A stretch of DNA of 64,000 nucleotides from Candidatus Melainabacteria bacterium (GTDB taxonomy: Bacteria; Cyanobacteriota; Vampirovibrionia; 2-02-FULL-35-15). The stretch is taken from contig JAHFBG010000010.1 of assembly GCA_023250155.1 (NCBI GenBank), positions 17,832-81,831 of the forward strand, in the 5' to 3' direction. Below are positions 2,947 through 22,486 of the stretch, piece by piece. The notes below the pieces were generated by a model. The model saw only the letters and a program-made list of their open reading frames with translations. It searched no databases and had not been told where the DNA came from. The position numbers were made by a program, and so were the translations under genes. Each line of letters begins with the position of its first letter. The first letter of the stretch is position 1.

Positions 2947-3029
2947 GGTTTAAATTAAAGCTTGCAAAGATTAACAAATGCTTAAATATATTACGGTTTG
3001 TTACAGGTATTATTTTCTGATAATATTCT

Positions 3030-3590: not shown

Positions 3591-3661
3591 GTATATGATT
3601 TTATACTAGAAATGCTAAACTTGTTGTTAATTGAAACAGCTTATAAAACCAGGAGAATCAC

Positions 3662-3943
3662 ATGCCATTGAAAGTCACAAGATTAAATACCTTTACTCTA
3701 AATGATATTGTAACGGCAAGAGATACATTAAGAAGTAAACTTATTTCTAGCACCATTCAAAAAGATGAACAAGAAGACTTGCAAGTCTTAGAAGGAATCT
3801 GTGGAAGAGGAGATCTTATTACCGTCAATGAATTAGCTAAACATAGTTTAATAATTAGAGGACTACTTCAGGAATCTTTAACACCACCTGAGAAAGATGA
3901 GTTTCAAGAAATATTTCACCAATGGTGTAAGTTCGGTAGATAG
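3662..3943 (+). CDS. Hypothetical protein
   Basis: 93-aa ORF in an intergenic slot; no motif recognised. Confidence 0.35.
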   Translation: MPLKVTRLNTFTLNDIVTARDTLRSKLISSTIQKDEQEDLQVLEGICGRGDLITVNELAKHSLIIRGLLQESLTPPEKDEFQEIFHQWCKFGR

Positions 3944-3945
3944 AT

Positions 3946-4713
3946 TTACTGTTCTATATGCAGCTTTATAAATCTAAGTTGCTCTAATTCTTTAGTGAAA
4001 AAAGGAAGTGTTACTTCTTGGCTTTCAGTTAAAGGACTTTTAGTACTTACTTCTAACTTCTTTCCACCATCTAGACCTTTAAAAACTAATTCATTTAATT
4101 CAATAGATTTTTCAAGTTCTTCAGATTTTGCTGAAGATGGTGTGTCTGACAGAAGCACAGGAGAATATATTTCCCACTTGCTAAAGTCTTTATTCGGTAC
4201 ATATCGTGTATGTCCATGAACAATATATAGCAAACCATCTTTCCCTCTTGTTACTCCCCATTGTAGAGCAAGAGGCAAATTGTTATTTCCATTTTTTAAA
4301 ATCTCAGGTTGTACAAAAGTATCGTCAGAATATAAGATTGTTTTAGCTTCAATATTACTAGATCCCTGATAATACATTCCTAAAGATTCAAGATCTATTA
4401 CTGCAGGCTTATTACCAGAAATTGTTGCTGTTAAACCTAGTGTATTTAATTGAGCTAATCTAAACATAGATACTGCAAATTTATTACCACTTAGTACTTG
4501 TTGAACTGCTTCATTAGCAAATTGATTAGTTATCATATTTTCTGGTTTCTCAAATATGCTAAGTTTTTCCAACTCATCATCTTCAAACTTTACATCAGGG
4601 CTTGCTTTAAGTTTATCAATAGCTTTCCCTTTATTAACTAGTGCTTTAAATACTTGTGTTGCATTAATACCCTGAATTGGATTTAATAAATTTATTGTGG
4701 GGACCTGACTCAT
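3946..4713 (-). CDS. Hypothetical protein
   Basis: 255-aa ORF with clean boundaries; no confident motif. Confidence 0.5.
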   Translation of the reverse strand: MSQVPTINLLNPIQGINATQVFKALVNKGKAIDKLKASPDVKFEDDELEKLSIFEKPENMITNQFANEAVQQVLSGNKFAVSMFRLAQLNTLGLTATISGNKPAVIDLESLGMYYQGSSNIEAKTILYSDDTFVQPEILKNGNNNLPLALQWGVTRGKDGLLYIVHGHTRYVPNKDFSKWEIYSPVLLSDTPSSAKSEELEKSIELNELVFKGLDGGKKLEVSTKSPLTESQEVTLPFFTKELEQLRFIKLHIEQ

Positions 4714-4909
4714 ATTTATCTCCTTATATTTATAGTGGAAACTTATTATAAGAGTTTTTTCATTTATTAATCAAGTCTTGACTGTCTTTGACTATAAGTT
4801 AAAACCTTAGATCATCCTTTTGAATATCCTAACGGATGATATATTTCAGCTATAAAAGTTAGAGAATTAAGTTGTGGCTTTAACTTTAATGACTAAATAA
4901 GGTGAAACA

Positions 4910-5398
4910 ATGACAAATGAAAGTTTAGTTAAAAATGAAACAAGTATCAAGGCATATTTTGAAGAAGATCATGACAGGCTGGATGAGTTATTTAAGAACT
5001 TTCAAAAATTTAAATTGTTAGACTACCCAAAAGCTAAAGAGTATTTTAAAGAGTTTAAGCATGGATTACAAAGGCATATTATTTGGGAGGAAGATATTTT
5101 ATTTCCTGTATTTGAAAAGAAATCAAATATCCCAAATGGCCCTACACATGTTATGAGAATGGAGCATAGACAAATAAAAGAATCTCTTGAAGCCATTCAT
5201 GATAAAGTCAAGAAACAAGATCCAAACAGTAATGACGATGAAGAAAAGCTTTTATCGATTTTAAAATCCCACAATATGAAGGAAGAAGGTATTTTATATC
5301 CAGCTATTGATAGTTTAATAGATGAAACAGAAAAGAAATCGATATTTCTTTCGATGAGAAATATTCCACAAGAACGTTTTGAAAAGTGTTGTGGATAG
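4910..5398 (+). CDS. Hemerythrin-like (HHE cation-binding) domain protein
   Basis: Four repeated H-x3-E / LFP-type helices (HDRLDELF, HIIWEEDILFPVFE, HRQIKESLEAIHD, EEGILYPAID). Confidence 0.55.
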   Translation: MTNESLVKNETSIKAYFEEDHDRLDELFKNFQKFKLLDYPKAKEYFKEFKHGLQRHIIWEEDILFPVFEKKSNIPNGPTHVMRMEHRQIKESLEAIHDKVKKQDPNSNDDEEKLLSILKSHNMKEEGILYPAIDSLIDETEKKSIFLSMRNIPQERFEKCCG

Positions 5399-5420
5399 TT
5401 TAAAATAGCTTAGATAATAA

Positions 5421-6059
5421 TTGCTTGGTATAATTAAAAGCATTATGAAAGAGATCTTAGAAAACATCTGGACGTGGTCAATGTTCTCAGAAGAAAAAGG
5501 ATATAACTTTAATGGTTACTTAATTTCTGATGGGAAGAAAAATGTTTTAATTGATCCTGTTAGGCAAAATGATGAAGATTTCAATTTTATTAAAAAGAAA
5601 GCTCCTTATGAAGCTATTTATTTAACCAATAAAGATCATTTAAGAGATTCAAAAAATCTAAAGACAAAATTAAATACTTCTATATGGATTCATGAAGAAG
5701 ATAAGCAGTATTTAGAAAATGATGTGGATTGTACATTTAAAGATGGAGATAAACTTACCTGTGAAATAGAAGTAATTCATCTAAATAATCAAAAATCTCC
5801 CGGAGAATGTGCTTTTTATCTACCAAGTAGAAAGGTTTTAATTTTAGGTGATGCTTTAATTGGATTTCCATCGGGAAGTTTAAAACTACTACCAAAAGAA
5901 AAATATAAGGATATCAAGAACACAATTAAGAGCCTTGAAAGGCTTGTATCACTATCCTTTGATACATTGCTATTAGGCGATGGTGAATCTATTTTAGAAG
6001 GTGCTAAAGAGAAGACAATTCACTTTCTACAAAATTATTTGTCCGTAATTTCTAAGTAA
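5421..6059 (+). CDS. MBL-fold metallo-hydrolase-like protein (degenerate His motif)
   Basis: N-terminal pattern NGYLISDGKKNVLIDP and GDALIG resemble the MBL fold. The canonical HxHxDH is degenerate (TNKDHLRD). Confidence 0.45.
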   Translation: MLGIIKSIMKEILENIWTWSMFSEEKGYNFNGYLISDGKKNVLIDPVRQNDEDFNFIKKKAPYEAIYLTNKDHLRDSKNLKTKLNTSIWIHEEDKQYLENDVDCTFKDGDKLTCEIEVIHLNNQKSPGECAFYLPSRKVLILGDALIGFPSGSLKLLPKEKYKDIKNTIKSLERLVSLSFDTLLLGDGESILEGAKEKTIHFLQNYLSVISK

Positions 6060-6100
6060 TATCAATCTGCTGAAATAATATTATATTTTCCTGCCTTTCC

Positions 6101-6156
6101 GCAGACAAACTTTTCTGTTTGTTTCGCTAAGCTCAACAGCCCAGAAAAGTGTCTGC
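6101..6156. repeat. Imperfect 17-bp inverted repeat (gcagacaaacttttctg / cagaaaagtgtctgc), locally GC-rich, between convergent or adjacent genes
   Basis: Seen directly in the sequence. Not followed by a T-tract, so its role as terminator versus regulatory hairpin is unclear. Confidence 0.3.
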
Positions 6157-6201
6157 TGGGCGCGGAACATAGTAAGCTTTATTGCGCAGATTGGTATAAT
6201 A

Positions 6202-7458
6202 ATGGCATCTATGAAAATTGCAATTATAGGCGGTGGTGCAGCAGGGTTAATGGCAGCAGCAACATTGATTGAAGAAAATATTAATGCAGAGATTTATCTC
6301 TTTGAAAAAAATGACGTACTTGGTAAAAAGGTTTCAATTAGTGGTGGTGGAAGGTGCAATGTAACTACAGGAATTACTGATAAAAATGAATTGCTATCAA
6401 AATACATAAGAGGTAGCAAGTTTTTAACTCCAGCATTATCAGCTTTTTCTCCTAAAGATGTAATGGATTGGTTCCAAGTAAATAGAGTGCCACTCAAAAT
6501 TGAAAAAGATTTAAGAGTATTTCCAAAATCAGATATTGGCAGTGATGTGGTAAATCTTTTTTATAATATTTTAATAGAAAGTAATAAGATAAAATTTTGT
6601 CTTTCAGAAACCGTAAAAGAGGTAAAGTCTTTAAAAGAACAATTTACAGTAGTAACAAATAAGCAAGAATATGATTTTGATATTGTAGTTATTACAAGTG
6701 GTGGAAACGCTTATAAACACACAGGATCTACAGGAGATGGATATGACTTTGCTAAAGCTTGTGGACATACTATTACAAAACTTGGACCTTCTCTAAATAG
6801 CTTTGAAGTACAAGAAAATTGGATTAAAAGATTGTCAGGATTAAGCTTTCCTAATGCTAAATTAGCTTTTACATTAGATGGAGAAAAGAAGAATGAAGTT
6901 ATTGGTCCACTCTTATGTACTCATTTTGGAATCTCAGGTCCTGTTGTTTTTGCACTATCTGCTCACTTAGCTTTTGTAGAAATCTCAAAACAGGTTCCAA
7001 AAAAAATAAAACTAAATCCTTTAGCTAATTATAATTTTGATGATTATGAGAAAACGCTTGTGGCTTTAATTTCAAACAATGGTGCTAAGCTCATCCTAAA
7101 CACTCTTTCAGAATTATTACCAAAGAGCTTTGTTGACGAATTATTAATAATGGCTAATATTCCAAAGGATAAAAAATCTGCAGAAGTTTCAAAGAAAGAA
7201 AGAAATAAGATCTGTGATTTACTGTCTTCTAATATTGAACTAACTTTAATATCAAGAAGAAAAGGAGATGAGTTTGTAACTGCAGGAGGTGTTGAGCTAT
7301 CTGAGATAAACAATAAAACCATGCAATCAAAATTAAATCCTAACCTTTATCTTGCAGGTGAGGTTTTAAATGTAGATGGACTTACAGGAGGCTTTAATCT
7401 TCAGTCTGCATGGGCTACTGGCAGATTAGCAGGGATTGGTATAGCAAAAAGATTATAG
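6202..7458 (+). CDS. HI0933/YhiN-family NAD(P)/FAD-dependent flavoprotein (aminoacetone oxidase-like)
   Basis: N-terminal IAIIGGGAAGLMAA dinucleotide-binding motif and the SGGGRCNVT signature of the HI0933 family. 418 aa. Confidence 0.85.
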   Translation: MASMKIAIIGGGAAGLMAAATLIEENINAEIYLFEKNDVLGKKVSISGGGRCNVTTGITDKNELLSKYIRGSKFLTPALSAFSPKDVMDWFQVNRVPLKIEKDLRVFPKSDIGSDVVNLFYNILIESNKIKFCLSETVKEVKSLKEQFTVVTNKQEYDFDIVVITSGGNAYKHTGSTGDGYDFAKACGHTITKLGPSLNSFEVQENWIKRLSGLSFPNAKLAFTLDGEKKNEVIGPLLCTHFGISGPVVFALSAHLAFVEISKQVPKKIKLNPLANYNFDDYEKTLVALISNNGAKLILNTLSELLPKSFVDELLIMANIPKDKKSAEVSKKERNKICDLLSSNIELTLISRRKGDEFVTAGGVELSEINNKTMQSKLNPNLYLAGEVLNVDGLTGGFNLQSAWATGRLAGIGIAKRL

Positions 7459-7459
7459 A

Positions 7460-10400
7460 TTAACGTGATTTCTTCTTCTTTTTCTTAGCTCTTTGCGGAA
7501 CTTCAATTAGCTTAACAGTTCGTCCATAAGGATTTGTTATAACGAGTACAAATTCTCCTTTTATATTCTTATCTAGAATTGTGAAAAGGACATTTGCTTT
7601 TCTTCTACCTTTTCCAATGAATCGTTTTTTAAAGACTAGATTTTCACTTGGAATAATTTCAAATATTGTTTGTGCTACTTTTTTTCTAATTTTCTTGCGC
7701 TTATTTACCAGTACTCGTTTAGCTCTAAAGAAGTTGCCTCCTCTCATTTTTACTCTTAGTCTCTTCTTTTTCCTGAATACTTTTATTTGTTCAATTACTG
7801 GTTGTAAGGTATTTAATGGTTTATTTACAACGCTTATAGGAGAAGTAGAATCAATTCTTGGTTTAACTACAGAGACAACTGTTTGAGCTACAGGAGCATC
7901 ACCAACTAGTATAACCAAGTTTAAAAGAGCTGTATCAGTCAGGTCTTCTGGAACTAAATCAGTGATAAGCAGTGGAGAATCTTCTGCCCCAGGTGGTAAG
8001 TAAACAGATGCTTGTACTTTATGAATTTTTCCAGCATTATCAGTTATTTGTACAAAGATATTTTGATTTGTATTGGTAATCAAATCTTTAATGTTACCAG
8101 TTAGGTTTCTTAAAAATATTGCATTTTCTGATCCAGCTATCAATTGGCTACTATCAAAGGTGCTAACCATTGTGCCATTAACAATATTTGGTACTGATAT
8201 AGGTTCTGAAGAAACAACAGGAATATTTTCTACTACAGGTGGAGGTGGATTTGGAGCTGGTGGATTTGATATAGGATTAGTTGGTGGAGTAGGATTTACC
8301 ACTACTGTACCACTACTGCTTGAGACTCCACCTAATGTATTTAAACCTGTACCTCCTCCTGATGAAGTGGTTGAAGTATTGGTGACTGGACCAGGACTTG
8401 CTGGTGGACTTAATACTGGGAGCAATGAAACTATAAATGTACCGATACTATCTTTTAACTCTATTATTGTTGAAGGAGTCGTATTAGCACTTGGTATAAC
8501 TTCATCATCAATGGTAAACCATAAATTTCTATCTGGTCCCGAAGTAATATCATTTGGAGTACTAAATTTCTTGGGGAGATTATAAGTAGTAATATCTCCA
8601 TTGAGTGAAACCTTTCCTAAGCCATCGTTATTCTTGCCTTTAATAGTAAACCAAATATTCCCATCGGGTCCTACTGTTATACGATTTGGCAAACCAGAAT
8701 CTATAGGAAGATTAAACTCAATAACACTTCCATCAATTGCAATCTTACCTATTTTTTTAGCACCAGATTCTATAAACCAAAGATTGTTATCTGGTCCAAG
8801 AGTAAGATCGCTTGGCAAGCTTGATATTGTAGGAATATCAAATTCTGCAACTCTTCCATCTATTGCAATTTTTCCGATTTTATTTTTGCTTGATTCAGTA
8901 AACCAAATATCCCCATCAGGTCCTAGCGAAAGATAAGCAGGCACATCTGGGACATCAAACTCAGTAATTCTCCCATCTATTGCAACCGTTCCAATTTTTT
9001 TAGCAGTTTCACCAAACCAAAGATTCCCATCTGACCCTGTTGCAATATCTGTCGTAGTAGAAGAGACATCTAATTCTGTAATCATGCCATCAGAAGAAAT
9101 CTTTCCAACTTTATTTTTCAACTTTTCAGTAAACCAAATATTTCCATCAAATGCTGTTGTGATATTAAGTGGACCACTATCATTTTGTGGCAGATCATAT
9201 TCTGTGATTTGTCCATTAATAGAAGCTTGTCCAATTTTATTTTTTCCTACTTCAGTAAACCAAAGGCTGCCATCTAGTCCTTTTGTTATACCAAAGGGAT
9301 TGCTTGCAACTGTTGGAATATCATGTTTTTGTAGTATTGGACCACTCAATAAGCCTGATGACGATGATGATAAAACAACGACAACAGGTGGAACAAACTT
9401 ACAAGCAAATGAAGCTCTACCTATAACATTTGTAGAAGGTTCTGTAAACCACAAATCATTGTCAGGTCCAAAAGCAAGTGAAGATGGTTTAGTAAAGTTG
9501 GTTGTTGGTGCATATTTAAAGAAGTCCCCATCTGTAGTGAGTCTCCATATCCTGCTCTTATTTTTTTGAGTTTTCTCAGTAAACCAAAGACTACCATCAG
9601 GTCCTGTGATTATATTTGCAGGAGAGCAATCAGCAGGAATCTTATACTCAGTAATATTTCCATTATTAGAATCGATTTTTCCAATTCTGTTTCCATCTTT
9701 CTCAGTAAACCAAACATTATCATCAAGTCCAAGGGCTATACCATAAGGACTGCTGTCCTGTGTAGGAATTTTATATTCAACAACGCTACCATCTCTTGTA
9801 ATTCTTCCTATTTTGTTTGCATCAAATTCGGTAAACCATATATCCCCACTGGGTCCAGCTACTATGCCATATGGATTGCTATCTTGTGTAGGTATTTTAT
9901 ATTCTATTATGTCTGAAAAAGTAGGGGCTCCAAGAATGGGTTGCAATGATTGCTGAACAATAATCTTTCCAATCTTATTTCCATCTCTCTCTGTAAACCA
10001 AATATTTCCATCAGGTCCACTAGTTATACCTATAGGTTTACTTTTTAGTGTAGGAATTTTATACTCAGTAAAATCACCGTCTTTTGTAATTCTTCCTATT
10101 TTGTTTGCATCAAATTCAGTAAACCATATATTGTTATCAGAGCCTACTGTTAAGTTAAACGGATAACTGCCTTGTGTAGGAACTTTATATTCAGTAATAT
10201 CTCCATTGTCTGCGATTTTCCCGATTTGATTTCTTCCAGCTTCTGTAAACCACAAATTTCCATCAGAACCTAAAATAATATTTAATGGGTTACTTGCAGA
10301 TTTTAATTCAAATTTCTGAGTTTTATTTATTGGGCATTGTCCAGAAATATCTTCTTCCGGTGAACCTGAAGAGCTTGAAGATGAGCTCGAGGAACTACTT

Positions 10401-13400
10401 GAGCTTCCTGAAGAAGAAGTACTAATTACACTAACGGCAATACCACCTGATGAACTTGAAGAATTTCCTGACGAGCTTGAGCTAGATGAACTAGATGATG
10501 AGCCTGAAGATGAACTGCTACTAGAAGATGATGATGAGACTATAGGAGAAAGGGCTTTACATGAGAATGGAATCTTTCCTACCTTACTACCACTAACAAA
10601 CCAAAGACCATCAACTCCTGTAATTAAGGCATTACCACCACCACCCAAAGATTCATAAACATAAGTATTGTCTTTAAGAGTATAAAGAGAAATCGTTCCA
10701 TCCTTTGTGATTTTTCCAACTTTATTGCCAGCAGGAAACCAAACATTTCCATCCCCGCCTAGTGTTAAACTTCTAGCATAAGTACTGTCTGCAATGTTAT
10801 AAAAAGAAACTGTTCCATCTTTTGTGATCTTTCCAACTTTATTGCCAGCAGGAAACCAGACATTACTATCCCCACCCAGTATTAAACTTCTGGCATAAGT
10901 ACTGTCTTTAAGAGTATAAAGAGAAACTTCTCCATCTTTTGTAATCTTTCCAACTTTATCACCAGCAGGGAACCAAACATTGCCATCCCCACCTAGTATT
11001 AAGCTTCTAGCATAAGTACTGTCTTTAAGAGTATAAAGAGAAACTTCTCCATCTTTTGTAATCTTTCCAATTTTGTCAGTAGCAGCAAACCAGATATTAC
11101 CATCTCCACCTAACACTAAAGAGTTTCCACTCTCAAGAGAATTGGAAGAAATATAAGCATTGTCTTTAAGAGTATAAATAGTGCTCTCTCCATCTTTTGT
11201 AATTTTTCCGATTTTATTGCCAACAGGAAACCAAACATTACCATCCCCACCTAGTACTAAACTTTTGGTAGAAACATTGTCTTTGAGAGTATAAATAGTG
11301 CTCTCTCCATCTTTTGTGATTTTTCCGATTTTAGTATCAGCCGCAAACCAGACATTACCATCTCCACCTAGTACTAAAGGGGTTCCACTGTCATAGAGAA
11401 AAGAAGAAATATAAGCATTGTCTTTAAGAGTATAAAGAGTGTTTTCACCATCTTTTGTAATCTTCCCAATTTTATTCCCAGAAGGAAACCAAATACTGCC
11501 ATCCCCTCCTAGCACTAAACTTCTGGCATAAGTATTGTCTTTAAGAGTATAAAGAGAAATATTCTCTGCTTTCAATTCTTCTGATGAACAGCTTGATCCA
11601 CTTAGAGATGGTATTGTAGGAGAAAGGGCTTTACATGAGAATGGAATCTTTCCTACCTTACTACCACTAACAAACCAAAGACCATCAACTCCTGTAATTA
11701 AGGCATTACCACCACCACCCAAAGATTCATAAACATAAGTATTGTCTTTAAGAGTATAAAGAGAAATCGTTCCATCCTTTGTGATTTTTCCAACTTTATT
11801 GCCAGCAGGAAACCAAACATTTCCATCCCCGCCTAGTGTTAAACTTCTAGCATAAGTACTGTCTGCAATGTTATAAAAAGAAACTGTTCCATCTTTTGTG
11901 ATCTTTCCAACTTTATTGCCAGCAGGAAACCAGACATTACTATCCCCACCCAGTATTAAACTTCTGGCATAAGTACTGTCTTTAAGAGTATAAAGAGAAA
12001 CTTCTCCATCTTTTGTAATCTTTCCAACTTTATCACCAGCAGGGAACCAAACATTGCCATCCCCACCTAGTATTAAGCTTCTAGCATAAGTACTGTCTTT
12101 AAGAGTATAAAGAGAAACTTCTCCATCTTTTGTAATCTTTCCAATTTTGTCAGTAGCAGCAAACCAGATATTACCATCTCCACCTAACACTAAAGAGTTT
12201 CCACTCTCAAGAGAATTGGAAGAAATATAAGCATTGTCTTTAAGAGTATAAATAGTGCTCTCTCCATCTTTTGTAATTTTTCCGATTTTATTGCCAACAG
12301 GAAACCAAACATTACCATCCCCACCTAGTACTAAACTTTTGGTAGAAACATTGTCTTTGAGAGTATAAATAGTGCTCTCTCCATCTTTTGTGATTTTTCC
12401 GATTTTAGTATCAGCCGCAAACCAGACATTACCATCTCCACCTAGTACTAAAGGGGTTCCACTGTCATAGAGAAAAGAAGAAATATAAGCATTGTCTTTA
12501 AGAGTATAAAGAGTGTTTTCACCATCTTTTGTAATCTTCCCAATTTTATTCCCAGAAGGAAACCAAATACTGCCATCCCCTCCTAGCACTAAACTTCTGG
12601 CATAAGTATTGTCTTTAAGAGTATAAAGAGAAATATTCTCTGCTTTCAATTCTTCTGATGAACAGCTTGATAATCCACCTGAAGAACTTGGCGATAAGCC
12701 AGAGCTACTAGAAGATCCGCTTGAAGAGCTTGAAGATAGACCAGAGCTACTGGAAGATCCACTTGATGAAGATGCTAGCAATAAACCACCTGATGAACTT
12801 GAAGAAGAAACAACACAATCTGCAAAACCAAGACAGCTAGATGGGTTTGTAGGACAACAACCATTTATACAACAAAGGGCTCCACACTGTGTATAAGTAC
12901 ACGAAGTAGTAGATGGTGGTACTGGGATACATGTGTTATTAAGAAGTGCAGAAACTTGAGTGGCACTAAGGGCATTGTCATAGATTCTTACTTCATCAAG
13001 TCGCCCATTAAACGAACGATCATATCCTGCCATTGCGCTTTGTCTGGCACCAACAGAAACTATATGTGTATTAGTATCTAAAGCACCTTGAGCAGTACTT
13101 GCACTATTATTTTCTGTACCATTAATATATATGCGTGAAGTGATTCCATCATAAGTAGCTGCTAAATGAGTCCATGCAGTTGAAATTCCACCAGTAGCAG
13201 TAACACCATATGAAGTTCCACCTTTCCAGAAGAAAAAGCGATATTGATTACCAGTGCAGTCTAAACACCAGACCTCACCACCATTTCCATTTCCTTTACA
13301 GGCAATGGCATTGTCATTTGTTTGGGTACTACTATTTGGTTTCACCCATGCAGCAATGGTAACATTAGAAACATTAAACGATGCGTTATTTCCCACGTCT

Positions 13401-13684
13401 ACATAATCATCAGCCCCATCAAGACTCAAACTATAAGAACTACCAAAACACCTATTTGGTATGTCTGTAATTGTTGAATATGTTGGTCCATTAGTTAGTG
13501 TCCCTGTATTAGTTCCTTGAGAGTCAGTTGCTGTAGTACCACTACCTTCTTCAAATGAATAATAAGAAACTAGAGCAGCATTAGCTGACATGACTTGCTG
13601 AAAAGAAAGAAGCAAACAAAGTATAACTTTAAAAAATACTTTAAATACTTGTGGTTTTAATTTAGAAGAGATTTTTTCTAACAT
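7460..13684 (-). CDS. Giant secreted multidomain protein (2074 aa): signal peptide, LamG-like lectin domain, Cys-rich module, two identical 358-aa blocks of eight ~42-aa beta-propeller-blade repeats, Vgb/streptogramin-lyase-like (NHL-like) beta-propeller region (NIWFTE...NKIGKI blades), Pro/Thr-rich segment and a ~100-aa polybasic C-terminal tail
   Basis: Single uninterrupted ORF. LamG signature LDGADDYVDVGN...RLDEVRIYDNALS. Repeated GKITKDGxxTxYTLKDN...LVLGGDGNVWF and GPDGNIWFTExxxNKIGKI blades. Poly-Ser linkers. C-terminal KKKRLRVKMRGG...KKKKKKSR. Confidence 0.85.
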   Translation of the reverse strand: MLEKISSKLKPQVFKVFFKVILCLLLSFQQVMSANAALVSYYSFEEGSGTTATDSQGTNTGTLTNGPTYSTITDIPNRCFGSSYSLSLDGADDYVDVGNNASFNVSNVTIAAWVKPNSSTQTNDNAIACKGNGNGGEVWCLDCTGNQYRFFFWKGGTSYGVTATGGISTAWTHLAATYDGITSRIYINGTENNSASTAQGALDTNTHIVSVGARQSAMAGYDRSFNGRLDEVRIYDNALSATQVSALLNNTCIPVPPSTTSCTYTQCGALCCINGCCPTNPSSCLGFADCVVSSSSSSGGLLLASSSSGSSSSSGLSSSSSSGSSSSSGLSPSSSGGLSSCSSEELKAENISLYTLKDNTYARSLVLGGDGSIWFPSGNKIGKITKDGENTLYTLKDNAYISSFLYDSGTPLVLGGDGNVWFAADTKIGKITKDGESTIYTLKDNVSTKSLVLGGDGNVWFPVGNKIGKITKDGESTIYTLKDNAYISSNSLESGNSLVLGGDGNIWFAATDKIGKITKDGEVSLYTLKDSTYARSLILGGDGNVWFPAGDKVGKITKDGEVSLYTLKDSTYARSLILGGDSNVWFPAGNKVGKITKDGTVSFYNIADSTYARSLTLGGDGNVWFPAGNKVGKITKDGTISLYTLKDNTYVYESLGGGGNALITGVDGLWFVSGSKVGKIPFSCKALSPTIPSLSGSSCSSEELKAENISLYTLKDNTYARSLVLGGDGSIWFPSGNKIGKITKDGENTLYTLKDNAYISSFLYDSGTPLVLGGDGNVWFAADTKIGKITKDGESTIYTLKDNVSTKSLVLGGDGNVWFPVGNKIGKITKDGESTIYTLKDNAYISSNSLESGNSLVLGGDGNIWFAATDKIGKITKDGEVSLYTLKDSTYARSLILGGDGNVWFPAGDKVGKITKDGEVSLYTLKDSTYARSLILGGDSNVWFPAGNKVGKITKDGTVSFYNIADSTYARSLTLGGDGNVWFPAGNKVGKITKDGTISLYTLKDNTYVYESLGGGGNALITGVDGLWFVSGSKVGKIPFSCKALSPIVSSSSSSSSSSSGSSSSSSSSSSSGNSSSSSGGIAVSVISTSSSGSSSSSSSSSSSSSGSPEEDISGQCPINKTQKFELKSASNPLNIILGSDGNLWFTEAGRNQIGKIADNGDITEYKVPTQGSYPFNLTVGSDNNIWFTEFDANKIGRITKDGDFTEYKIPTLKSKPIGITSGPDGNIWFTERDGNKIGKIIVQQSLQPILGAPTFSDIIEYKIPTQDSNPYGIVAGPSGDIWFTEFDANKIGRITRDGSVVEYKIPTQDSSPYGIALGLDDNVWFTEKDGNRIGKIDSNNGNITEYKIPADCSPANIITGPDGSLWFTEKTQKNKSRIWRLTTDGDFFKYAPTTNFTKPSSLAFGPDNDLWFTEPSTNVIGRASFACKFVPPVVVVLSSSSSGLLSGPILQKHDIPTVASNPFGITKGLDGSLWFTEVGKNKIGQASINGQITEYDLPQNDSGPLNITTAFDGNIWFTEKLKNKVGKISSDGMITELDVSSTTTDIATGSDGNLWFGETAKKIGTVAIDGRITEFDVPDVPAYLSLGPDGDIWFTESSKNKIGKIAIDGRVAEFDIPTISSLPSDLTLGPDNNLWFIESGAKKIGKIAIDGSVIEFNLPIDSGLPNRITVGPDGNIWFTIKGKNNDGLGKVSLNGDITTYNLPKKFSTPNDITSGPDRNLWFTIDDEVIPSANTTPSTIIELKDSIGTFIVSLLPVLSPPASPGPVTNTSTTSSGGGTGLNTLGGVSSSSGTVVVNPTPPTNPISNPPAPNPPPPVVENIPVVSSEPISVPNIVNGTMVSTFDSSQLIAGSENAIFLRNLTGNIKDLITNTNQNIFVQITDNAGKIHKVQASVYLPPGAEDSPLLITDLVPEDLTDTALLNLVILVGDAPVAQTVVSVVKPRIDSTSPISVVNKPLNTLQPVIEQIKVFRKKKRLRVKMRGGNFFRAKRVLVNKRKKIRKKVAQTIFEIIPSENLVFKKRFIGKGRRKANVLFTILDKNIKGEFVLVITNPYGRTVKLIEVPQRAKKKKKKSR
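10543..12671 (-). repeat. Two tandem, nucleotide-identical 1074-bp units (358 codons each) inside the giant gene
   Basis: Segments checked at 10561/11635, 10981/12055 and at the unit ends are identical at DNA level. Unit boundaries diverge at 10542/11616 and 11598/12672. Confidence 0.85.
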
Positions 13685-13805
13685 ACTGTCAATTTGCTTT
13701 TTCGTATCTTAGTATATTAAATAAAATAATATAAGCAATTTGAAACATTTGTTATATGAGATTAGTTATAATAGCTTAATAAAGAATAAAAACTAAATAC
13801 TTGAC

Positions 13806-13994
13806 TTAATCTTCAAATATTGTAGCTTCTTCTATAAATGCAATAGCTGGAAATAAGTGTTCTTGAGTATTTGGAACCATTTCTTCTATTAATACCCAGG
13901 CTTTTTTTTGAGTGGATTCACTAGATTCATCTTTAATAACAAAAGATGGATATTTTTTAGTTGTATCTATTATAGGAATTACCTTTAGATTCAT
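13806..13994 (-). CDS. Hypothetical small protein
   Basis: 62-aa ORF only. Confidence 0.25.
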   Translation of the reverse strand: MNLKVIPIIDTTKKYPSFVIKDESSESTQKKAWVLIEEMVPNTQEHLFPAIAFIEEATIFED

Positions 13995-14053
13995 TTTTTA
14001 ATGGTTGCATATTGTCTTTTGATTGTAAATAGAATTTAAATTCTATAATTATT

Positions 14054-14353
14054 CTATTTGTCGTCTTGATTAAACAATTCATATGCCATAGATGAAAAAT
14101 TTCTAAGGATCTCACTGTAATTGTTTTTTGATAACTCCTGAAGTATTTCCAGAAGTTTTGGAATATCATCTTTTTGAAATGCCCACCTTCCACAAAGTAC
14201 TAAATCTAAAGTGTATTCAGCATAGATTAGATTGTATGCTTGTAGTCGTTCATCAATAAACTTATTAATATCTTTAACTAGGATTGGACTACCTTGCTTT
14301 TTAGGAAAGGCTCTTTGTATATATACCTGCTGATTTAGTGATTTTACTTGCAT
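14054..14353 (-). CDS. Hypothetical protein
   Basis: 99-aa ORF with non-low-complexity composition. Confidence 0.4.
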   Translation of the reverse strand: MQVKSLNQQVYIQRAFPKKQGSPILVKDINKFIDERLQAYNLIYAEYTLDLVLCGRWAFQKDDIPKLLEILQELSKNNYSEILRNFSSMAYELFNQDDK

Positions 14354-14504
14354 GGATATGATTATCCAATAGTACTTACCAAGAAAGTGAAAACTTTATT
14401 TTTGCTTTAGAATTGAATTAGTAAAGATTAGAGTTCATCTAGCTTTACAAGCTTACAAACCTAATTTTAAGTAATAAGAAGTAGTAAGATATAAAAACAA
14501 TAAA

Positions 14505-15056
14505 ATGCAAATCCCAAAACACTACCAATCACTATTTATAAGATTTATACGATTTGCTTGTGGAATGACAATTTTTGCACTACTTAGTGGAATTCTTTTT
14601 CAGGAGTCAACAAAAAAAATACCTTTTAGTGCAACCTATCCACCAGGGATTCATTTGGAGTCAACTTATCATTTAGCACTAGTTCATGGACATGCTTTTT
14701 TAATTGGAGTATTAATACCATTAGCAGTAATTGGGATGTTGTATTTTGGACTTTTATTAGGTGGAAAAACTGTCTCTAAAAACCAAACAGAATGGGGTTC
14801 ATGGCTTTATTTACCTAGTGCATTTTTATCTATAATGCTTATGATTTATAAAGGATATCATTATGTCCTTTCTGTCCGTATGGGGCAATTAGACTTTGTA
14901 CAAATAGATCATAGTTTTTTCGGGGGCTCACATTTGCTTAGGCAAATAGTTTATGGTTTATCTCATACATCAATGTCAATAGGACTAGGCATTTTAGTCA
15001 TTGCAATCTGGAGAAGCTTGTCTGGTTTAAAATTTACAGAAACCAAGACTGATTAA
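14505..15056 (+). CDS. Hypothetical integral membrane protein
   Basis: 183 aa with several hydrophobic helices. Confidence 0.5.
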   Translation: MQIPKHYQSLFIRFIRFACGMTIFALLSGILFQESTKKIPFSATYPPGIHLESTYHLALVHGHAFLIGVLIPLAVIGMLYFGLLLGGKTVSKNQTEWGSWLYLPSAFLSIMLMIYKGYHYVLSVRMGQLDFVQIDHSFFGGSHLLRQIVYGLSHTSMSIGLGILVIAIWRSLSGLKFTETKTD

Positions 15057-15108
15057 TTGTTTTTTTCTTAATTTTGTATATATTATTCTAAAAAGTTATA
15101 ATGCTTTC

Positions 15109-15849
15109 ATGTCAACACTTCGCATAATAGATGGAGCAGATCTCCAATTTCGGGACAAACGAGGACTTCCATTTTACGATAATGCAGATTACTGTGATCA
15201 GAAACAAACACAACAAAAAGACGAACTTTTTATTCAAACAGATAGAGAGTTTTCAGCATATAAATCATTCTTTTATTTGAACAAAAATAAACTTGAAGGT
15301 AAAAAGATCTTAAATGTAGGTGGTGGTATAAAAGATTTATTTGGTAGAGAAGCTGCACTATATGGTGCAGAGGTATACTCTATTTCTCCTGCATATAAAT
15401 TAAAAAAATATAGTACTCCTCTACAAAGAGGAGTACGTGGAAAACCAGAATTAAAATATACTGGCAGATGCATTGCTGCTCGTGCACAAAACCTCCCATT
15501 TCCTGATGATACTTTTGATTATGTTCTTGCATTTAACTCTATCCCTTGTTATGTGAATCTTCTTGAGGATTTATATCTTGGAATGAAGGAAATGGTAAGA
15601 GTCGTTAAACCGAATCATGAAATAATGATTGCATCAATGATGGATTATAGAAATGAACTAGGTCCTGTGATTAGAAAATGGCTTCGAGATATTGAGTGTA
15701 AAGTTTATAAAAAAGATATTGAAGTACTTGGTATTAGAAAAAAACATCCAGGAGTTTATCCACCAGGTGTTCTGCCTAAAAGTAATTCCTTAAATCTTTC
15801 TACTCATCATGAAAATACTTTTTGGACTAAACAAGGCTTTCTTGCTTAG
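15109..15849 (+). CDS. Class I SAM-dependent methyltransferase-like protein
   Basis: Motif I-like ILNVGGGIK, motif II LPFPDDTFDYVLAF, motif III LKEMVRVVKPNHEIMIA. Confidence 0.6.
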   Translation: MSTLRIIDGADLQFRDKRGLPFYDNADYCDQKQTQQKDELFIQTDREFSAYKSFFYLNKNKLEGKKILNVGGGIKDLFGREAALYGAEVYSISPAYKLKKYSTPLQRGVRGKPELKYTGRCIAARAQNLPFPDDTFDYVLAFNSIPCYVNLLEDLYLGMKEMVRVVKPNHEIMIASMMDYRNELGPVIRKWLRDIECKVYKKDIEVLGIRKKHPGVYPPGVLPKSNSLNLSTHHENTFWTKQGFLA

Positions 15850-15912
15850 TAAATTAACAAACCTCTTATTTCATTATTATAGATATAATGTTTTTATAAA
15901 CCTGGTGAATAA

Positions 15913-16455
15913 ATGGCTTTAACTTATATTGGAAAACAAATAAAAATTAGAAGACACAAACTTTCTGATGCAGATGATATTTATAGAAATATAAGTGACA
16001 AAACAATTTATAGATTTACAAGAACAATTCCATACCCATACAAGAAAAGAGATGCAATCGACTTTGTAGAAAGCACTGCCGGACTAAGAAACAAGAAATC
16101 AGCATATCAATTTGCAATAGCAGAAAAAATAACTGATAAAGTAATTGGTGGGATTGGTCTTATGAACTTTGATTGGAAGAATAAAAATGCAGAATTGGGT
16201 TATTGGATAGGCAAGAAATATCGAGGTAAAGGTTATGCACCAGAGGCAATAAACCTAATCTTAAAGTTTGGGTTTAAAGAACTGAAGCTAAATAGAATTT
16301 GGGCTGCTGCATTTGAGACAAATATTTCTTCAATTAAGGTTTTAAAGAAAACTAATTTTAAATATGAAGGCTTGATGCGAAAAACCGTTCTTAAACTTGG
16401 TAAATGGCAAAATCAAGTTATGTATTCTATGCTTAGCTCTGAGTTTAAACCATAA
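15913..16455 (+). CDS. GNAT family N-acetyltransferase (RimJ/RimL-like)
   Basis: QFAIAEK...VIGGIGL...GYWIGKKYRGKGYAPEA...WAAAFETNISSIKVLKKTNFKYEG pattern of RimJ/L-type GNATs. Confidence 0.8.
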   Translation: MALTYIGKQIKIRRHKLSDADDIYRNISDKTIYRFTRTIPYPYKKRDAIDFVESTAGLRNKKSAYQFAIAEKITDKVIGGIGLMNFDWKNKNAELGYWIGKKYRGKGYAPEAINLILKFGFKELKLNRIWAAAFETNISSIKVLKKTNFKYEGLMRKTVLKLGKWQNQVMYSMLSSEFKP

Positions 16456-16465
16456 GAGATAAGCA

Positions 16466-16666
16466 ATGACTGAAATTGTTAAATACAGACAGTTGCATGA
16501 AGATGATTTTGAAGAAATCTATAATGTTGCTTTTGAAGCATGGAGTTATACATACAAAGACATTGTTACATCTTCCTATATAAAAAATTCTATTGATAAA
16601 TTTTACTCACCTGAAGTACTTCAAAAACATAACCTATTCTACTTAGTCTTGGACTGTTTAGGTTAA
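16466..16666 (+). pseudogene. Truncated GNAT-like N-terminal fragment (66 codons)
   Basis: Short ORF. Its first ~40 codons are duplicated in degraded form at 17940-17990. Ends abruptly. Confidence 0.45.
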
Positions 16667-16715
16667 AATATCTACGTAATGTAATGTTTTCTGTAAGTCA
16701 AAAAATGAGGGATAT

Positions 16716-17801
16716 ATGAAAAAACAATTAATAGTTTCTATAGCATTAACAATACTTTTTTTTACAACCAATAAGTCTTTTAGTGAGGTTTTAGTAAACA
16801 CTGGTGGTAAAAGTAATGGTGCTTCATTAGCAGGAGAAGCTGGACCAAAAGGAATAAATCAAACTGTTACATTAAGAAAATCAGGTGGAAGTATTAAACA
16901 AGCAAAAGCAAGAGGACTGTTTTCAAAGACTAATGTAAATCTTGGAAATCAAGTGGTTTCTAGAGGTACGAAAGGTGATCCAAAATTAACTCATGTAGAT
17001 GCAAATTCTATATTTGCTGGAACAGGTACATTTATGTCAGATGATGGCAATCCAGTAGAAAACTTTACAATCGGACTCGATGTTCATGGAATATTGAAGT
17101 GTAAATCAAATGCAATGAGTACCTTTTTTTCAATTGCTCAAACTGGTGTAGAACTAATCATAGATGATGACTCAAAGTTTTCGGGTACAGCTACACAAGA
17201 TGGTACAGGACCATTCTTTGACTCTGGTGATTTAAAAGGACAGTTTCAAATGGGGGCTAACATAGCAATGATAACTAAACAATTCCCAATAAATCTCGGG
17301 ACATTGGAAGATGGACAAAAACTGCCTTTCCTTTTTATTGGTACAACACTCGTTTCTTATGGAGAAATGGTTGGGATTAAATTTTGCTCAGCAGATTTTC
17401 TTAAAACTTCTTCATTTGAACCTTTAGCTGGGCAAAAAGGGGCATTAGATCTTAAAGCTGGTAAACAAGTCATTGTCATTTATATTGACAGTGATACTTC
17501 TATTGTTAGTGGTAATGAAAAACTTTTAATTGAAAGTCAAGATTCCAACTTGATAAGTAATATTAAACCAGGCAGTATTAAAGTTATTTTTCCTACTAAT
17601 GTAACCTATGATGCCAATACGGGGACTCCAGGAGACCTTAATTCTAATGGTCTTACAGATAGTGAGCTAACTGTAGGTGGCTCATCAACTACTCTTGCAA
17701 CAACTATTTCTACAAGAGGAATTAATACATTAGTGGTTTATGGACAAACAACAACTGGTGAAACTTTCTATGGATTACTCGATGTAAGTAAATTAAAATA
17801 A
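16716..17801 (+). CDS. Hypothetical secreted protein (signal peptide)
   Basis: 361 aa. MKKQLIVSIALTILFFTT signal-like N-terminus. No domain recognised. Confidence 0.6.
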   Translation: MKKQLIVSIALTILFFTTNKSFSEVLVNTGGKSNGASLAGEAGPKGINQTVTLRKSGGSIKQAKARGLFSKTNVNLGNQVVSRGTKGDPKLTHVDANSIFAGTGTFMSDDGNPVENFTIGLDVHGILKCKSNAMSTFFSIAQTGVELIIDDDSKFSGTATQDGTGPFFDSGDLKGQFQMGANIAMITKQFPINLGTLEDGQKLPFLFIGTTLVSYGEMVGIKFCSADFLKTSSFEPLAGQKGALDLKAGKQVIVIYIDSDTSIVSGNEKLLIESQDSNLISNIKPGSIKVIFPTNVTYDANTGTPGDLNSNGLTDSELTVGGSSTTLATTISTRGINTLVVYGQTTTGETFYGLLDVSKLK

Positions 17802-17827
17802 TTAGACTTGAAAAGAAAGTGCTGGTA

Positions 17828-17999
17828 GTCTTACCCTGCACCATATCACTCCACCTTGACAAGCAATATAAAGAATTGCTAACTCTCCTTTGTTTGGTTC
17901 CATGTATTCAATGCTTAGCTCTGAGTTTAAACCATCAGAGATAAATGATGATTTTGAAGAAATCTATAATGTTGCTTTTGCAAGCATGGAATCATACAT
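17828..17999. pseudogene. Mosaic of decayed fragments: a ~70-bp degraded copy of the doxX 3' end (17828-17895) followed by a degraded copy of the GNAT stop/start junction (17901-17999, with an internal ~40-bp deletion)
   Basis: Direct comparison: 17901-17999 vs 16419-16550 and 17828-17895 vs 18001-18075, both about 80-90% identical. Confidence 0.55.
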
Positions 18000-18385
18000 T
18001 ATTCTTTCTTATCCAGACACCATGTCACTCCGCCATGACAGGCAATGCAAAGAAAAACAAAGCAATAAAGTGCTGCTAATTCTCCTTTATTAACCGCTGG
18101 AAAAAACTCAGATCCTAGTCGAAATTGCCAATGAAACTGAAAATAAGCTACAGCCATGGTACCACTTGCTAAGAAAGCGGCCCATCTGGTTTGTAAGCCT
18201 ATCATCACAAGCAAGCCACAGATTAGTTCAATAATTCCACCAAACCAATGTTGAGATCCTATAGGAGGCTGAAAGTCAGCTAGAATACCAAAAATTTTCT
18301 GAACTCCATGAAACAAGAACATAAATCCTGTTACAATTCGCATTAATGCATAAGCTTGATTACTATATTTAGCAAGCTGTTTCAT
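17999..18385 (-). CDS. DoxX family membrane protein
   Basis: MRIVTGFMFLFHGVQKIFG ... GGIIELICGLLVMIGLQTRWAA, typical DoxX. Confidence 0.75.
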   Translation of the reverse strand: MKQLAKYSNQAYALMRIVTGFMFLFHGVQKIFGILADFQPPIGSQHWFGGIIELICGLLVMIGLQTRWAAFLASGTMAVAYFQFHWQFRLGSEFFPAVNKGELAALYCFVFLCIACHGGVTWCLDKKE

Positions 18386-18576
18386 TTATTCCCTCCTTAT
18401 GTTTGATTTTTAAATTATAAGCTTTTCAAAACCAAATGATTTGAAGTTGTTATCTTTTATTTGATTGAACATTATTTAAAATGTTTCTATAGGTTCTCCC
18501 CTAATTAAAAATAATTAAAATGGGAAAAGTTATTACTAGGTTATAAATATTTATTTCAGAAAGTGAGAGGTTAATT

Positions 18577-18918
18577 ATGTCTGGGCTGAATCGATATAAA
18601 ATAAAAAAATTCTTTACCGTTAAAAATATTTTTCTACTTATTTTACTTATTGGAGCTATTGTTTTTAATAACAGCATTAAACCAAAGCCTAGCGCCATAG
18701 CAAATCAATATAAACAACCCTCAAAACCAATCAATATTGTAGCTGCTATAAAAGCTGCACCCGTTACTATTCCAGCCGCTATAAAATCTGCTCAAAAGAA
18801 TATAAGTGATATTGCACAATCTCCTGAAAAGGCTAGAAACTTTCTTGGCGATAAAGTTAAAGAAGGTAAACAAAATTTTAAAGATGCAACTTCAGCACTA
18901 CAACCAAAAAGACGTTAG
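18577..18918 (+). CDS. Hypothetical membrane-anchored protein
   Basis: 113 aa with a single N-terminal TM segment. Confidence 0.4.
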   Translation: MSGLNRYKIKKFFTVKNIFLLILLIGAIVFNNSIKPKPSAIANQYKQPSKPINIVAAIKAAPVTIPAAIKSAQKNISDIAQSPEKARNFLGDKVKEGKQNFKDATSALQPKRR

Positions 18919-19191
18919 TATTGTTGTTCTAGAATTTTTAACATCTCAGAAAAGACTAACTCTCTTTGACAAAATCCTGCTTCAAATGCTTTAGCCAATA
19001 ACTCATAGTCAGAACAAAATGTTCTAAAATGCTGCTGCTCGCTCTTCGTTTGAATCTCTCCCGCCCAAGGCTCGATTAATTCTTCATGGGTCATACGATG
19101 TATTTTTAACAACATTAATCTTCTTTTAAATTAAAAGATATATTTTAAATGTTAACAATGCAGTTAGAACAAATTCAATTAAGGAAGAAAT

Positions 19192-19632
19192 ATGGGTACA
19201 GAAATAAATGGGATTCAAAACGTTATGGCACAAGGGTTAAATCATTCACAAAATTTAGAGACTCTCAATACAGTAACATCAGAAGGAATGCTCTATGACA
19301 AATATAATAAGTTGACAGATAAGAGACTAGGTCTTCGCCCACCTGATGCAGATTTTCATGATGATCCTAAACTGATAAATGCTATTTCCCAAGAAGGAGC
19401 ATCCCTTGCAAAGTACTATAGTGAACATCAAGACATAAACACACAAAAAGAAAAAGAACTCTTTAGAAACCTGGAAATTCTAGTGGGTAGAGGAGGGATA
19501 AGGACTTCTAGTCCTGAGCAAATTAAAGCAGTTAGAGAATTTCTAAAAAGTTCTGAGGCATTTAAGCCAAATGGAGAATTTAATTTCGATGGATTAATGC
19601 AAGCTTACCAACCAGGATTTCAAATTATGTAG
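19192..19632 (+). CDS. Hypothetical protein
   Basis: 146-aa ORF. Confidence 0.45.
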   Translation: MGTEINGIQNVMAQGLNHSQNLETLNTVTSEGMLYDKYNKLTDKRLGLRPPDADFHDDPKLINAISQEGASLAKYYSEHQDINTQKEKELFRNLEILVGRGGIRTSSPEQIKAVREFLKSSEAFKPNGEFNFDGLMQAYQPGFQIM

Positions 19633-19636
19633 AATT

Positions 19637-21442
19637 TTAGGCTTTTACTGTGAATGTTTTCCCCGAAAATATATTAAAGACTGCTTTGGGTTCTTCAACA
19701 GTTCTTGTACTTGGAAACTTTTTAAGTAGATATGCCATACATAAAGCTTCCCATTTAAGTGTTTCAACTGAAAATGTTTCTCCAACACATCCTCTTATAC
19801 CTGTTCCAAATTGCCATTTGCCAACTTTATTAAGTGTTTCAAATTTAGCAGGATTAAATACTTCTTTACTATTAAGTGAGCCATCTTCTAAAAGGAGCCC
19901 ATTTCTCTTAAGTCCCTCTCTACAATAAGCTCCAAGTGGAAAAACTGCTTCTATATTTTGAGGAATATTGAATAAAGGATGAGCAAGATTATGGTTTTTA
20001 ATTAATTTTTTTAACTCACGATTCGTTAATTCAGTAATTTCTTCTTCTCGGGCTGGATTTCTAAATACAACTCTGGAATTTCTTGAAATAAACAATAGAG
20101 CTGGTTCGTATGCTAGAGCAGCCCATGCTGCAGCATGAAAAGGTCTTATTAAATTTTCGTTTTCAAGTGCCTCTTTCATCATGTCAGGAAGATTTGTAGA
20201 TTTAAATTGGTCTAATGCTTTAATTAGTTCTTGGCGAAAATCGGGATTGGTAAGAGCTATATAATCAAAATTGCTCCTTGAATTTGACCTGTTAAAATAA
20301 CCAGCACCAATCATTTCAAAAAATATTTTTGATGCTTCAAATGTAACTTCTTCTGGAGCACGATTACCTTCACTTGTTAGTTTTACGGCTCCTAGAGCAA
20401 ATGCATCAAGTAAGTCTTGTGGTTCACCACCATTTTGCTGAAGTTTTTGAATACGCTCACTCATCATATCAAGCCCAAAAAGATGTAAATCTTTAATTAT
20501 TTTTTCTTCAGATTGGTTTCTTCCACTAAAAATAGTTATTCCAGGTACAGGACTTAAGACCCTGGTTCTTATTAAATGCATAAATCCTTTATCAATACTA
20601 TTAACAACAAAATCCATTCGAGCTGGAGAGATATCCCCTACTATAGATTTAAAAAGTGTTTCTTTAATTGATTTATCCCATTCTTCTCTAAGATTAAATT
20701 CATTTCCTGATCTCAATAATTGTTCTATGTTAAGGGCATTGTCAAGAATGATTTGTACATTTTTTTCTCTTTTCTTTCCAACAGCCTCACCAAAAAAGTA
20801 CTTCTCATAATCAACAAGCTTTCTGGCAACTTGATGTCGTGGGCGATCTGGTGCACCAACTGGTCCAAGTCTTCCAAACAATTCTTGCATAACATCATAA
20901 CGTCCATCTTTTTTAGTGACCCAATACAATTTACCTTTAGTCCCATTATGCTCAACTATAAAGGGACTACCGCTCTTATCTTTTAATAGCATTCCTAATC
21001 TAGAATCACCGCTACCTAAACAGTGGTTAGTATCTGGATTAAATTGTTCAAATGGGGTTATATATAAGCCGCCACGTAAAGGAGTATATTCCACCTCTTC
21101 AATAGGAACCCTTTTAAGGAGTAGTTCTTCAAAAAGTTTATAATCTCCATTATATATTCGATATTCATCTCGTACTGTTCTAGGATTGAATATAACATGA
21201 ACTGCAAAAGAAACTAGACCTGTAAAATTTCTTCCAAGTTCACTAAGGGTTTTTTTAATTGTTGGTATTCCAGAGGAAAAATCAAGCCATAATGAGTTAT
21301 ATACTTCTTTAGCTAAAGTTTTTGTTGTTGAAGGAGAACTTTCAACAACTTTTTTTCTTTTAGAAGTAGCTGCACTTGCTACTTGTTCAAAGTGTTGTGG
21401 AAGAAGCGGGGAATTAACTTTACTTATTGCTACAGGGGACAT
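19637..21442 (-). CDS. Cytochrome P450-like protein with N-terminal extension
   Basis: FGTGIRGCVGETF heme-thiolate signature (FxxGxRxCxG) lies ~55 aa from the C-terminus, as in P450s. 601 aa. Confidence 0.55.
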   Translation of the reverse strand: MSPVAISKVNSPLLPQHFEQVASAATSKRKKVVESSPSTTKTLAKEVYNSLWLDFSSGIPTIKKTLSELGRNFTGLVSFAVHVIFNPRTVRDEYRIYNGDYKLFEELLLKRVPIEEVEYTPLRGGLYITPFEQFNPDTNHCLGSGDSRLGMLLKDKSGSPFIVEHNGTKGKLYWVTKKDGRYDVMQELFGRLGPVGAPDRPRHQVARKLVDYEKYFFGEAVGKKREKNVQIILDNALNIEQLLRSGNEFNLREEWDKSIKETLFKSIVGDISPARMDFVVNSIDKGFMHLIRTRVLSPVPGITIFSGRNQSEEKIIKDLHLFGLDMMSERIQKLQQNGGEPQDLLDAFALGAVKLTSEGNRAPEEVTFEASKIFFEMIGAGYFNRSNSRSNFDYIALTNPDFRQELIKALDQFKSTNLPDMMKEALENENLIRPFHAAAWAALAYEPALLFISRNSRVVFRNPAREEEITELTNRELKKLIKNHNLAHPLFNIPQNIEAVFPLGAYCREGLKRNGLLLEDGSLNSKEVFNPAKFETLNKVGKWQFGTGIRGCVGETFSVETLKWEALCMAYLLKKFPSTRTVEEPKAVFNIFSGKTFTVKA

Positions 21443-21672
21443 ATTTAACCTCTCAATATTATTTTTATTACTAAACCAAAACGAGCATCATTTTAACATA
21501 TAAGTTATTCACTCCATAAACAGTAAATATGTATAATTGATTCCTATCTAACTACCAAATTATTATTAGACAGCATAGATTTTGGACTTCCTTATGTCAC
21601 GTTATGAAACACCTGAGTAATTAACTTTTCACTCTTGAGCAATGTAAAATAAATAACAATTAAGGAGTTCAA

Positions 21673-22368: not shown

Positions 22369-22486
22369 AAACTCCCCGTGGCGAGTGAGTTTCGAAGGAT
22401 AATTATACTGGAAACACCTTATATTTTTAGGAAAGCTGCTTGATACTACAGCGTCACATTTTGTTTATTGAGTTCTTCTACTTAGA

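Follow-up and report, generated by a model that had tools for sequence, protein, structure and literature searches.

Group B streptococci reportedly carry proteins of the alpha C protein/Rib family whose identical tandem repeats vary in copy number, as Madoff et al. are said to have described in 1996. Beta-propellers that have been amplified recently contain near-identical blades, down to identity at the nucleotide level, and the number of their repeats may be mis-counted during assembly (Pereira and Lupas 2022, PMC9218822). A propeller is classed as highly repetitive when its median blade identity exceeds 60% (PMC9218822). RecA-mediated recombination removes tandem duplications at high rates and leaves no trace of the lost copy (PMC10954465). 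The locus described here represents a known kind of event, as giant surface proteins with variable numbers of repeats and propellers of recent amplification have both been described, and is biologically ordinary. It is distinguished by a repeat unit that is an entire propeller, by perfect identity between the copies and by the visibility of both copy-number states in one strain. It is reasonably probable that the locus is a real in-frame tandem array of a whole propeller domain, polymorphic at one versus at least two copies and changed by homologous unequal recombination.

The window, which is the whole stretch of 64,000 nt that was analysed, contains a giant gene encoding 2074 aa on the minus strand (7460..13684; all features given below lie on the same strand), as defined by the ORF list, its translation and Pfam. 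The product is composed, in order, of a signal peptide, a LamG domain, a Cys-rich knot, a Ser linker, the repeat unit, a 7-aa linker, the repeat unit again, a second Ser linker, propeller B, propeller C, a Pro/Thr/Ser stalk and a C-terminal domain. The probable Sec signal peptide (aa 1-36, ...VMSANA/A; 13577..13684) was recognized by eye in the translation, and the LamG/concanavalin-like domain (aa 89-245; 12950..13420) matches Pfam PF13385 (Laminin_G_3) with an E-value of 6.5e-30 and 105 bits. The Ser/Gly-rich linker before the first unit (about aa 293-338; 12672..12808) is built of 42-bp repeats (TRF period 42 at 12673-12770), and the translation of the Ser-rich linker after the second unit (aa 1048-1116; 10337..10542) begins with IVSSSS. 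Translation and Pfam place propeller B, which has seven WFTE-type Vgb blades and is bracketed by Cys1117 and Cys1428, at aa 1117-1428 (9401..10336), and propeller C, with seven Vgb-type blades, at aa 1445-1745 (8450..9352). No Pfam family matches the C-terminal domain with its basic tail (aa 1830-2074; 7460..8197), and the final 114 aa contain 38 Lys/Arg versus 6 Asp/Glu. This layout appears typical of giant secreted adhesin-like proteins, and the domain content suggests the function. The protein is probably secreted and located at the cell surface, where it may serve as a non-enzymatic adhesin or lectin-like protein whose length or valency would vary with copy number.

The window derives from an uncultivated Melainabacteria bacterium and has a GC content of about 32%. 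Its argG gene shares 80% identity with the counterpart in Melainabacteria RIFCSPLOWO2_02_FULL_35_15, and a genome-collection scan detected the neighbouring HI0933-like gene, at 83% identity, in a Candidatus Melainabacteria MAG contig that does not carry the giant gene. A search of 5.8 billion proteins gave no close relative of the repeat unit (best match 39% identical), and a homologue search with the whole protein gave none either (best match 32% identical over 61% of its length, with short local matches of at most 54%). Exact matches to the 2074-aa product, to its 1716-aa form described below, to a fragment of the unit and to a predicted 99-aa fragment spanning the linker between the units were absent from the gene index and the protein collection. 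Two relatives were recovered by a metagenome scan. The first, L003, contains an orthologue of the 5' end of the gene with 85% nucleotide identity and the same architecture, in which the Ser/Gly linker upstream of the first unit is 18 aa longer; its contig breaks in the second blade of the unit. The second, L004, is a family member with 49% identity that is alike in head and tail, including the C-terminal domain, and has a middle composed of two propellers and Cys-rich modules. The middle of these giant proteins is thus evolutionarily fluid, since that of L004 differs while head and tail are kept. No closer relative with a resolved locus was found, L003, whose contig ends inside the unit, being the sole close orthologue.

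A scan of the window at an offset of 1074 bp revealed one long identical run, in which positions 10543-11597 equal positions 11617-12671 over 1055 bp with 0 mismatches; just outside this run, identity is at the background level. The period of 1074 bp corresponds to 358 codons and is in frame within the 2074-aa ORF, so that aa 339-689 of the protein are identical to aa 697-1047. An exact repeat of 1055 bp is beyond the reach of chance, and 0 differing sites among 1055 limit the divergence of the copies to about 0.3% or less (95% upper bound). The feature is real and is recent or actively maintained. The unit is designated U, the 19-bp linker between the copies J, and the outer flanks X and Y, and the window contains the head-to-tail array X-U-J-U-Y. 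In the N-terminal copy 1 of U (11617..12671; aa 339-689 plus partial codons), the blades occupy 11633-12628 and the terminal cysteines are Cys341 and Cys684; in copy 2 (10543..11597; aa 697-1047), the blades occupy 10559-11554 and the corresponding cysteines are Cys699 and Cys1042. J (CCACTTAGAGATGGTATTG; 11598..11616) encodes, with the adjoining bases, T-I-P-S-L-S-G (aa 690-696). The original prediction had placed a nucleotide-perfect duplication of a 1074-bp, 358-codon unit with a junction of about 19 bp at 10543-12671. The scan reproduced its coordinates, unit size and junction, the scattered differences that were sought between the copies numbered 0 in 1055 bp, and the predicted eight blade-like repeats per unit were found, with lengths of 39-47 aa.

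Several simple origins of the array were considered. J does not occur elsewhere in the 64,000-nt window, even when 3 mismatches are allowed, and a copy from another part of the window was rejected on this ground. Between 7 and 10 of its 19 positions match the outer flanks, too few for a simple join of the flanks as they are now. The array is also not the product of a simple one-step tandem duplication, as the identity covers 1055 of the 1074 bp and J is not a flank join. A 13-bp match (GCTACTAGAAGAT) common to both Ser linkers was rejected as a mediator because it lies away from the junction. A mobile element, a non-coding repeat and an enzyme were likewise rejected, the repeat being in frame, coding and a complete propeller without catalytic histidines. 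The two copies of U, lying head-to-tail 19 bp apart with 100% identity over 1055 bp, do form a substrate for homologous recombination. Repeat finders also detected older layers of repetition within each U, at periods of 117 bp and 258 bp.

Each U certainly contains eight sequence repeats, of 39, 47, 39, 47, 39, 39, 39 and 43 aa. [quoted passage not shown] An AlphaFold model of U built from 57 sequences (pLDDT 81.5) aligned with 2Z2N in Foldseek at a TM-score of 0.82 and has 7 confident blades, the eighth repeat falling below a pLDDT of 50. In the single-sequence model (pLDDT 78.9), the eighth blade is present at a pLDDT of 56-85, and the top TM-scores of this model are to the 8-bladed designs Cake8 and Scone and to BamB. 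An eight-bladed ring is thus the likely predicted structure of U.

A pair of Cys residues brackets each U (C341/C684 in copy 1 and C699/C1042 in copy 2), and the same bracket occurs around propeller B and in the relatives L003 and L004. Because this bracket is present at both ends and recurs elsewhere, the duplicated segment is one complete structural domain with two extra residues at either end. Histidine is missing from the translation of both U and of propeller B and occurs once in propeller C. The H270A mutant of Staphylococcus aureus Vgb is catalytically inactive, as stated in PDB entry 2Z2P. The U units are therefore not lyases, since they lack histidine whereas Vgb needs H270, and binding is their most likely role.

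When the flanking genes were looked up as exact matches, the locus was found in a number of ENA MEGAHIT assemblies (contigs named k141_...) and in Logan contigs. The contig ERZ27280021:k141_396724 (40,250 bp) is 100.000% identical to positions 1-11597 and 11617-25653 of the window. The overlap of these two alignments is precisely the 1055-bp unit, so that the contig reads X-U-Y, with one U and no J, and its gene encodes 1716 aa, i.e., 2074 minus 358. Compared with the window, L084, L087 and L104, which are assemblies and not reads, show 0 mismatches, one U, no J and the 1716-aa gene. Copy number therefore differs between assemblies. ERZ27280021 yields the longest contigs of this genome, at 40 and 77 kb. 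Both part from the window where a tRNA-Asn gene has its 3' end (25649-25653) and run on into unrelated DNA. A contig of another sample stays colinear with the window sequence across this site. With no SNPs and two structural differences from the window, the genotype in ERZ27280021 looks like a distinct clone. The favoured interpretation of the one-copy contig is that it represents a true allele, and copy number very probably differs between populations as well, at one versus at least two.

Six other assemblies break at the borders of U, as tallied from four contigs of three assemblies and from truncated products in three more, with two of the stops deduced from product length. L086 terminates 141 nt within U, coming from the 3' flank; on the 5'-flank side, L088 begins 141 nt and L089 136 nt within U. 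The Logan contig L090 begins 30 nt within U. Matching truncated products of 384 aa or 347 aa were found in ERZ27296333, SRR14366772 and SRR14366783. The prefix k141_ presumably denotes MEGAHIT at k=141, and Logan is taken to use k=31. In a de Bruijn graph, a unitig ends about one k-mer inside a repeat that has a second neighbour. Because the six assemblies break about one k-mer inside U on both sides, the tandem junction is supported outside the assembly of the window; breaks of this kind would not arise at a single-copy locus, and J of the window serves as the second neighbour of U. The junction is thus not a private artefact of the window's assembly, and its presence elsewhere is suggested by the break positions; the sequence of J was not found in any of the other contigs that were retrieved. 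The two copies in the window are a lower bound, as an assembler may traverse the loop only once. The comparison of copy number that had been proposed along with the original prediction, when run on same-strain public assemblies, thus gave one U in ERZ27280021 versus two in the window. It lends support to the reading as a very recent duplication, concerted evolution or copy-number variation, and the accompanying caution about assembly is upheld as far as a mis-count of copies is possible, whereas a pure artefact is contradicted by the breaks in the six assemblies.

The observed difference could arise from assembly in either direction. That the duplication was created by the window's assembly and the true gene has a single unit everywhere is very improbable. 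A same-strain single-unit contig does exist and the exact 2074-aa product is absent from the public gene index and protein collection, which would agree with such an artefact. Against it, J is only 19 bp long, so the k-mer or read that supports it spans the end of one U, J and the start of the next; six independent assemblies at two k values stop about k or k-1 bases inside U on both sides; and the junction is in frame and falls exactly between two complete Cys-bracketed domains. The converse, in which all genomes of the strain carry an array of at least two copies and the one-copy MEGAHIT contig is a collapse that lost the J path as a tip or low-coverage edge, is unlikely. It draws on the finding that an uninterrupted one-copy path occurs in only one informative assembly, all others breaking at the borders of U, and on the length of the repeat, 1055 bp being beyond the resolution of a short-read graph, in which a low-coverage junction path can be dropped. 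MEGAHIT operates without repeat resolution, so a contiguous X-U-Y path requires J edges that were missing from the graph or removed from it. A shortage of coverage is least likely to have cost the J path in ERZ27280021, because its contigs, at 40 and 77 kb, are the longest for this genome, and its population also differs at the independent tRNA-Asn site with 0 SNPs, as a distinct clone would. These points argue for a genuine polymorphism over a collapse, and copy number is probably polymorphic.

Given a genuine polymorphism, the direction of the change has to be considered. The two-copy form might be a very recent single de novo duplication of the one-copy form with 19 nt of filler inserted, rather than an older homogenised array. 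The 0 differences in 1055 bp, the abrupt drop of identity at both edges without a gradient of divergence, and the flanks, which are identical in the one- and two-copy forms, all fit such an origin, which is nevertheless judged rather unlikely. Bacterial tandem duplications normally arise at short homologies and contain no filler, and neither the one-copy sequence nor the remainder of the window contains J, which is no flank join either. The reverse step, from one copy to two, is demanding because J must be created with exactly 19 nt to hold the frame, which adds a coincidence, whereas deleting one period by exchange between 1-kb direct repeats poses no mechanistic difficulty. Loss, from two copies to one, is thus the likelier direction, because J is not derivable from the one-copy sequence, and the array is considered ancestral to the one-copy form.

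Under the preferred reading of a real array that changes by unequal recombination, RecA-type exchange between the perfect 1055-bp repeats would remove or add exactly one 1074-bp period and leave the frame intact. The loss of one period would convert X-U-J-U-Y to X-U-Y, as seen in the one-copy contig, and repeated expansion and contraction, or conversion, would keep the copies of U identical. The sampled natural populations would then contain two or more states, among them one with three propellers in 1716 aa and one with four in 2074 aa or more. An extension of this scheme, in which the array is a functional switch of domain number, is doubtful. Reversible gain and loss of a whole 8-bladed propeller would in that case be a contingency mechanism for adjusting how far the surface adhesin reaches or its valency, clones of different copy number would be favoured from one sample to the next, and the variation of a 45-bp repeat in the gene of a neighbouring envelope protein might reflect the same strategy.

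The locus provides a natural snapshot of the duplication or loss of a whole domain, with three and four propellers in one protein of one strain. [quoted passage not shown] The locus is also a case for metagenome assembly, as the number of domains obtained for a giant protein varies with assembler and sample. The locus reveals no new mechanism, and we infer the function of the gene.

Internal duplications in related proteins were surveyed by an offset-identity scan of 173 sequences of at least 500 aa (172 homologues and the window protein). A 150-aa window with at least 99% identity at a domain-scale offset was detected in five of the 173, i.e., the window protein and four homologues, and about 15 reach at least 85%. 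The giant LamG/propeller proteins P0066, P0004, P0106 and P0050 contain internal duplications with 92-97% identity over 200-640 aa, and P0004 has a 420-bp exact DNA repeat at an offset of 744 bp in a 2.78-Mb contig. In contrast to U, none of these duplications is perfect over a whole module, and the four proteins belong to unrelated lineages with at most 37% identity to the window protein.

Among the described systems, the Vgb family (PF24684; 2Z2N, 2Z2O, 2Z2P, 2QC5) has the blade motif and the fold in common with U. Vgb is a cytoplasmic enzyme of about 300 aa with seven blades, in which H270 is essential, whereas U has eight repeats and no His and is one bead in a 2074-aa, putatively secreted multi-domain protein. 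The alpha C protein/Rib family resembles the present case in its in-frame, DNA-identical repeats within a secreted or surface protein and in its whole-repeat variants. The repeats of alpha C are about 240 bp long and Ig-like, whereas the unit here is 1074 bp and encodes a full 8-blade propeller, in one versus at least two copies, in an uncultivated, non-pathogenic Melainabacteria bacterium. The recently amplified propellers of Pereira and Lupas are similar in their high blade identity (median of 68% in U), but perfect identity is found here between whole propellers, with a period of 358 aa, and not between neighbouring blades, and a linker that is not part of a propeller lies between the copies. 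The RecA-unstable tandem duplications (PMC10954465) are comparable in their direct repeats, in the exact and scarless loss of one period and in their mixed populations. Those duplications extend from tens of kb to Mb, whereas the array described here is intragenic, with a unit of 1 kb, and would alter the number of domains in the protein while the gene dosage stays unchanged.

A tandem repeat with a unit of 45 bp was identified at window positions 768-1105, within an envelope-type gene that extends past the start of the window and encodes a product of 852 aa with a weak match to CarboxypepD_reg. In L085, a contig of the same strain from sample ERZ27276474, this repeat is shorter by four units (180 bp) and the product is 792 aa, while another contig, L086, begins within the repeat. 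The 45-bp repeat is a second difference in repeat number among the same-strain samples, besides the probable one in the propeller units of the giant gene.

A member of the giant-gene family has been located at positions 7180-12581 of L004, a contig from the OBEQ metagenome. The LamG head and the C-terminal domain are common to this gene and the giant gene, and its middle section is composed of two seven-bladed Vgb propellers, after which come approximately seven modules rich in Cys, each about 75 aa long. The reading frame is disrupted near 12084-12093, owing to a frameshift or to an error in sequencing. In the window, several plus-strand ORFs of 100-170 aa are found opposite the giant gene (8073-9916). 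These lie entirely within the giant-gene repeats and are almost certainly shadow ORFs rather than genes. Three paralogous genes encoding products of 1254, 1260 and 1321 aa are arranged in tandem on the plus strand at 39173-51135. Their DNA identity is 68-77% within the repeated stretches found, and none of the three had a match in Pfam.

The tRNA-Asn(GUU) gene, on the minus strand at 25649-26227, marks a further difference between samples. Two contigs from ERZ27280021 (L104 and L108) diverge from the window precisely at the 3' end of this gene (25649-25653) and continue into unrelated DNA of 1037 nt (L104:1-1037) and 295 nt (L108:1-295), in which a weak ParB-HTH-like ORF is present. L110, from sample ERZ27280116, is colinear with the window at this point. 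It looks as if an element has integrated at tRNA-Asn in the ERZ27280021 population.

The same tRNA gene is split by a group I intron of 507 nt (25687-26193, minus strand), which is inserted in the anticodon loop (CUGU/UAA). The Rfam model Intron_gpI scores 79.6 bits at 25694-25929, and an ORF of approximately 110 aa within the intron contains an HNH motif (...LCANCHRELHSK). ARAGORN found no tRNA in the unspliced window and returned tRNA-Asn(gtt) when run on the joined exons. For bacteria, 21 types of tRNA split by introns have been listed in a preprint.
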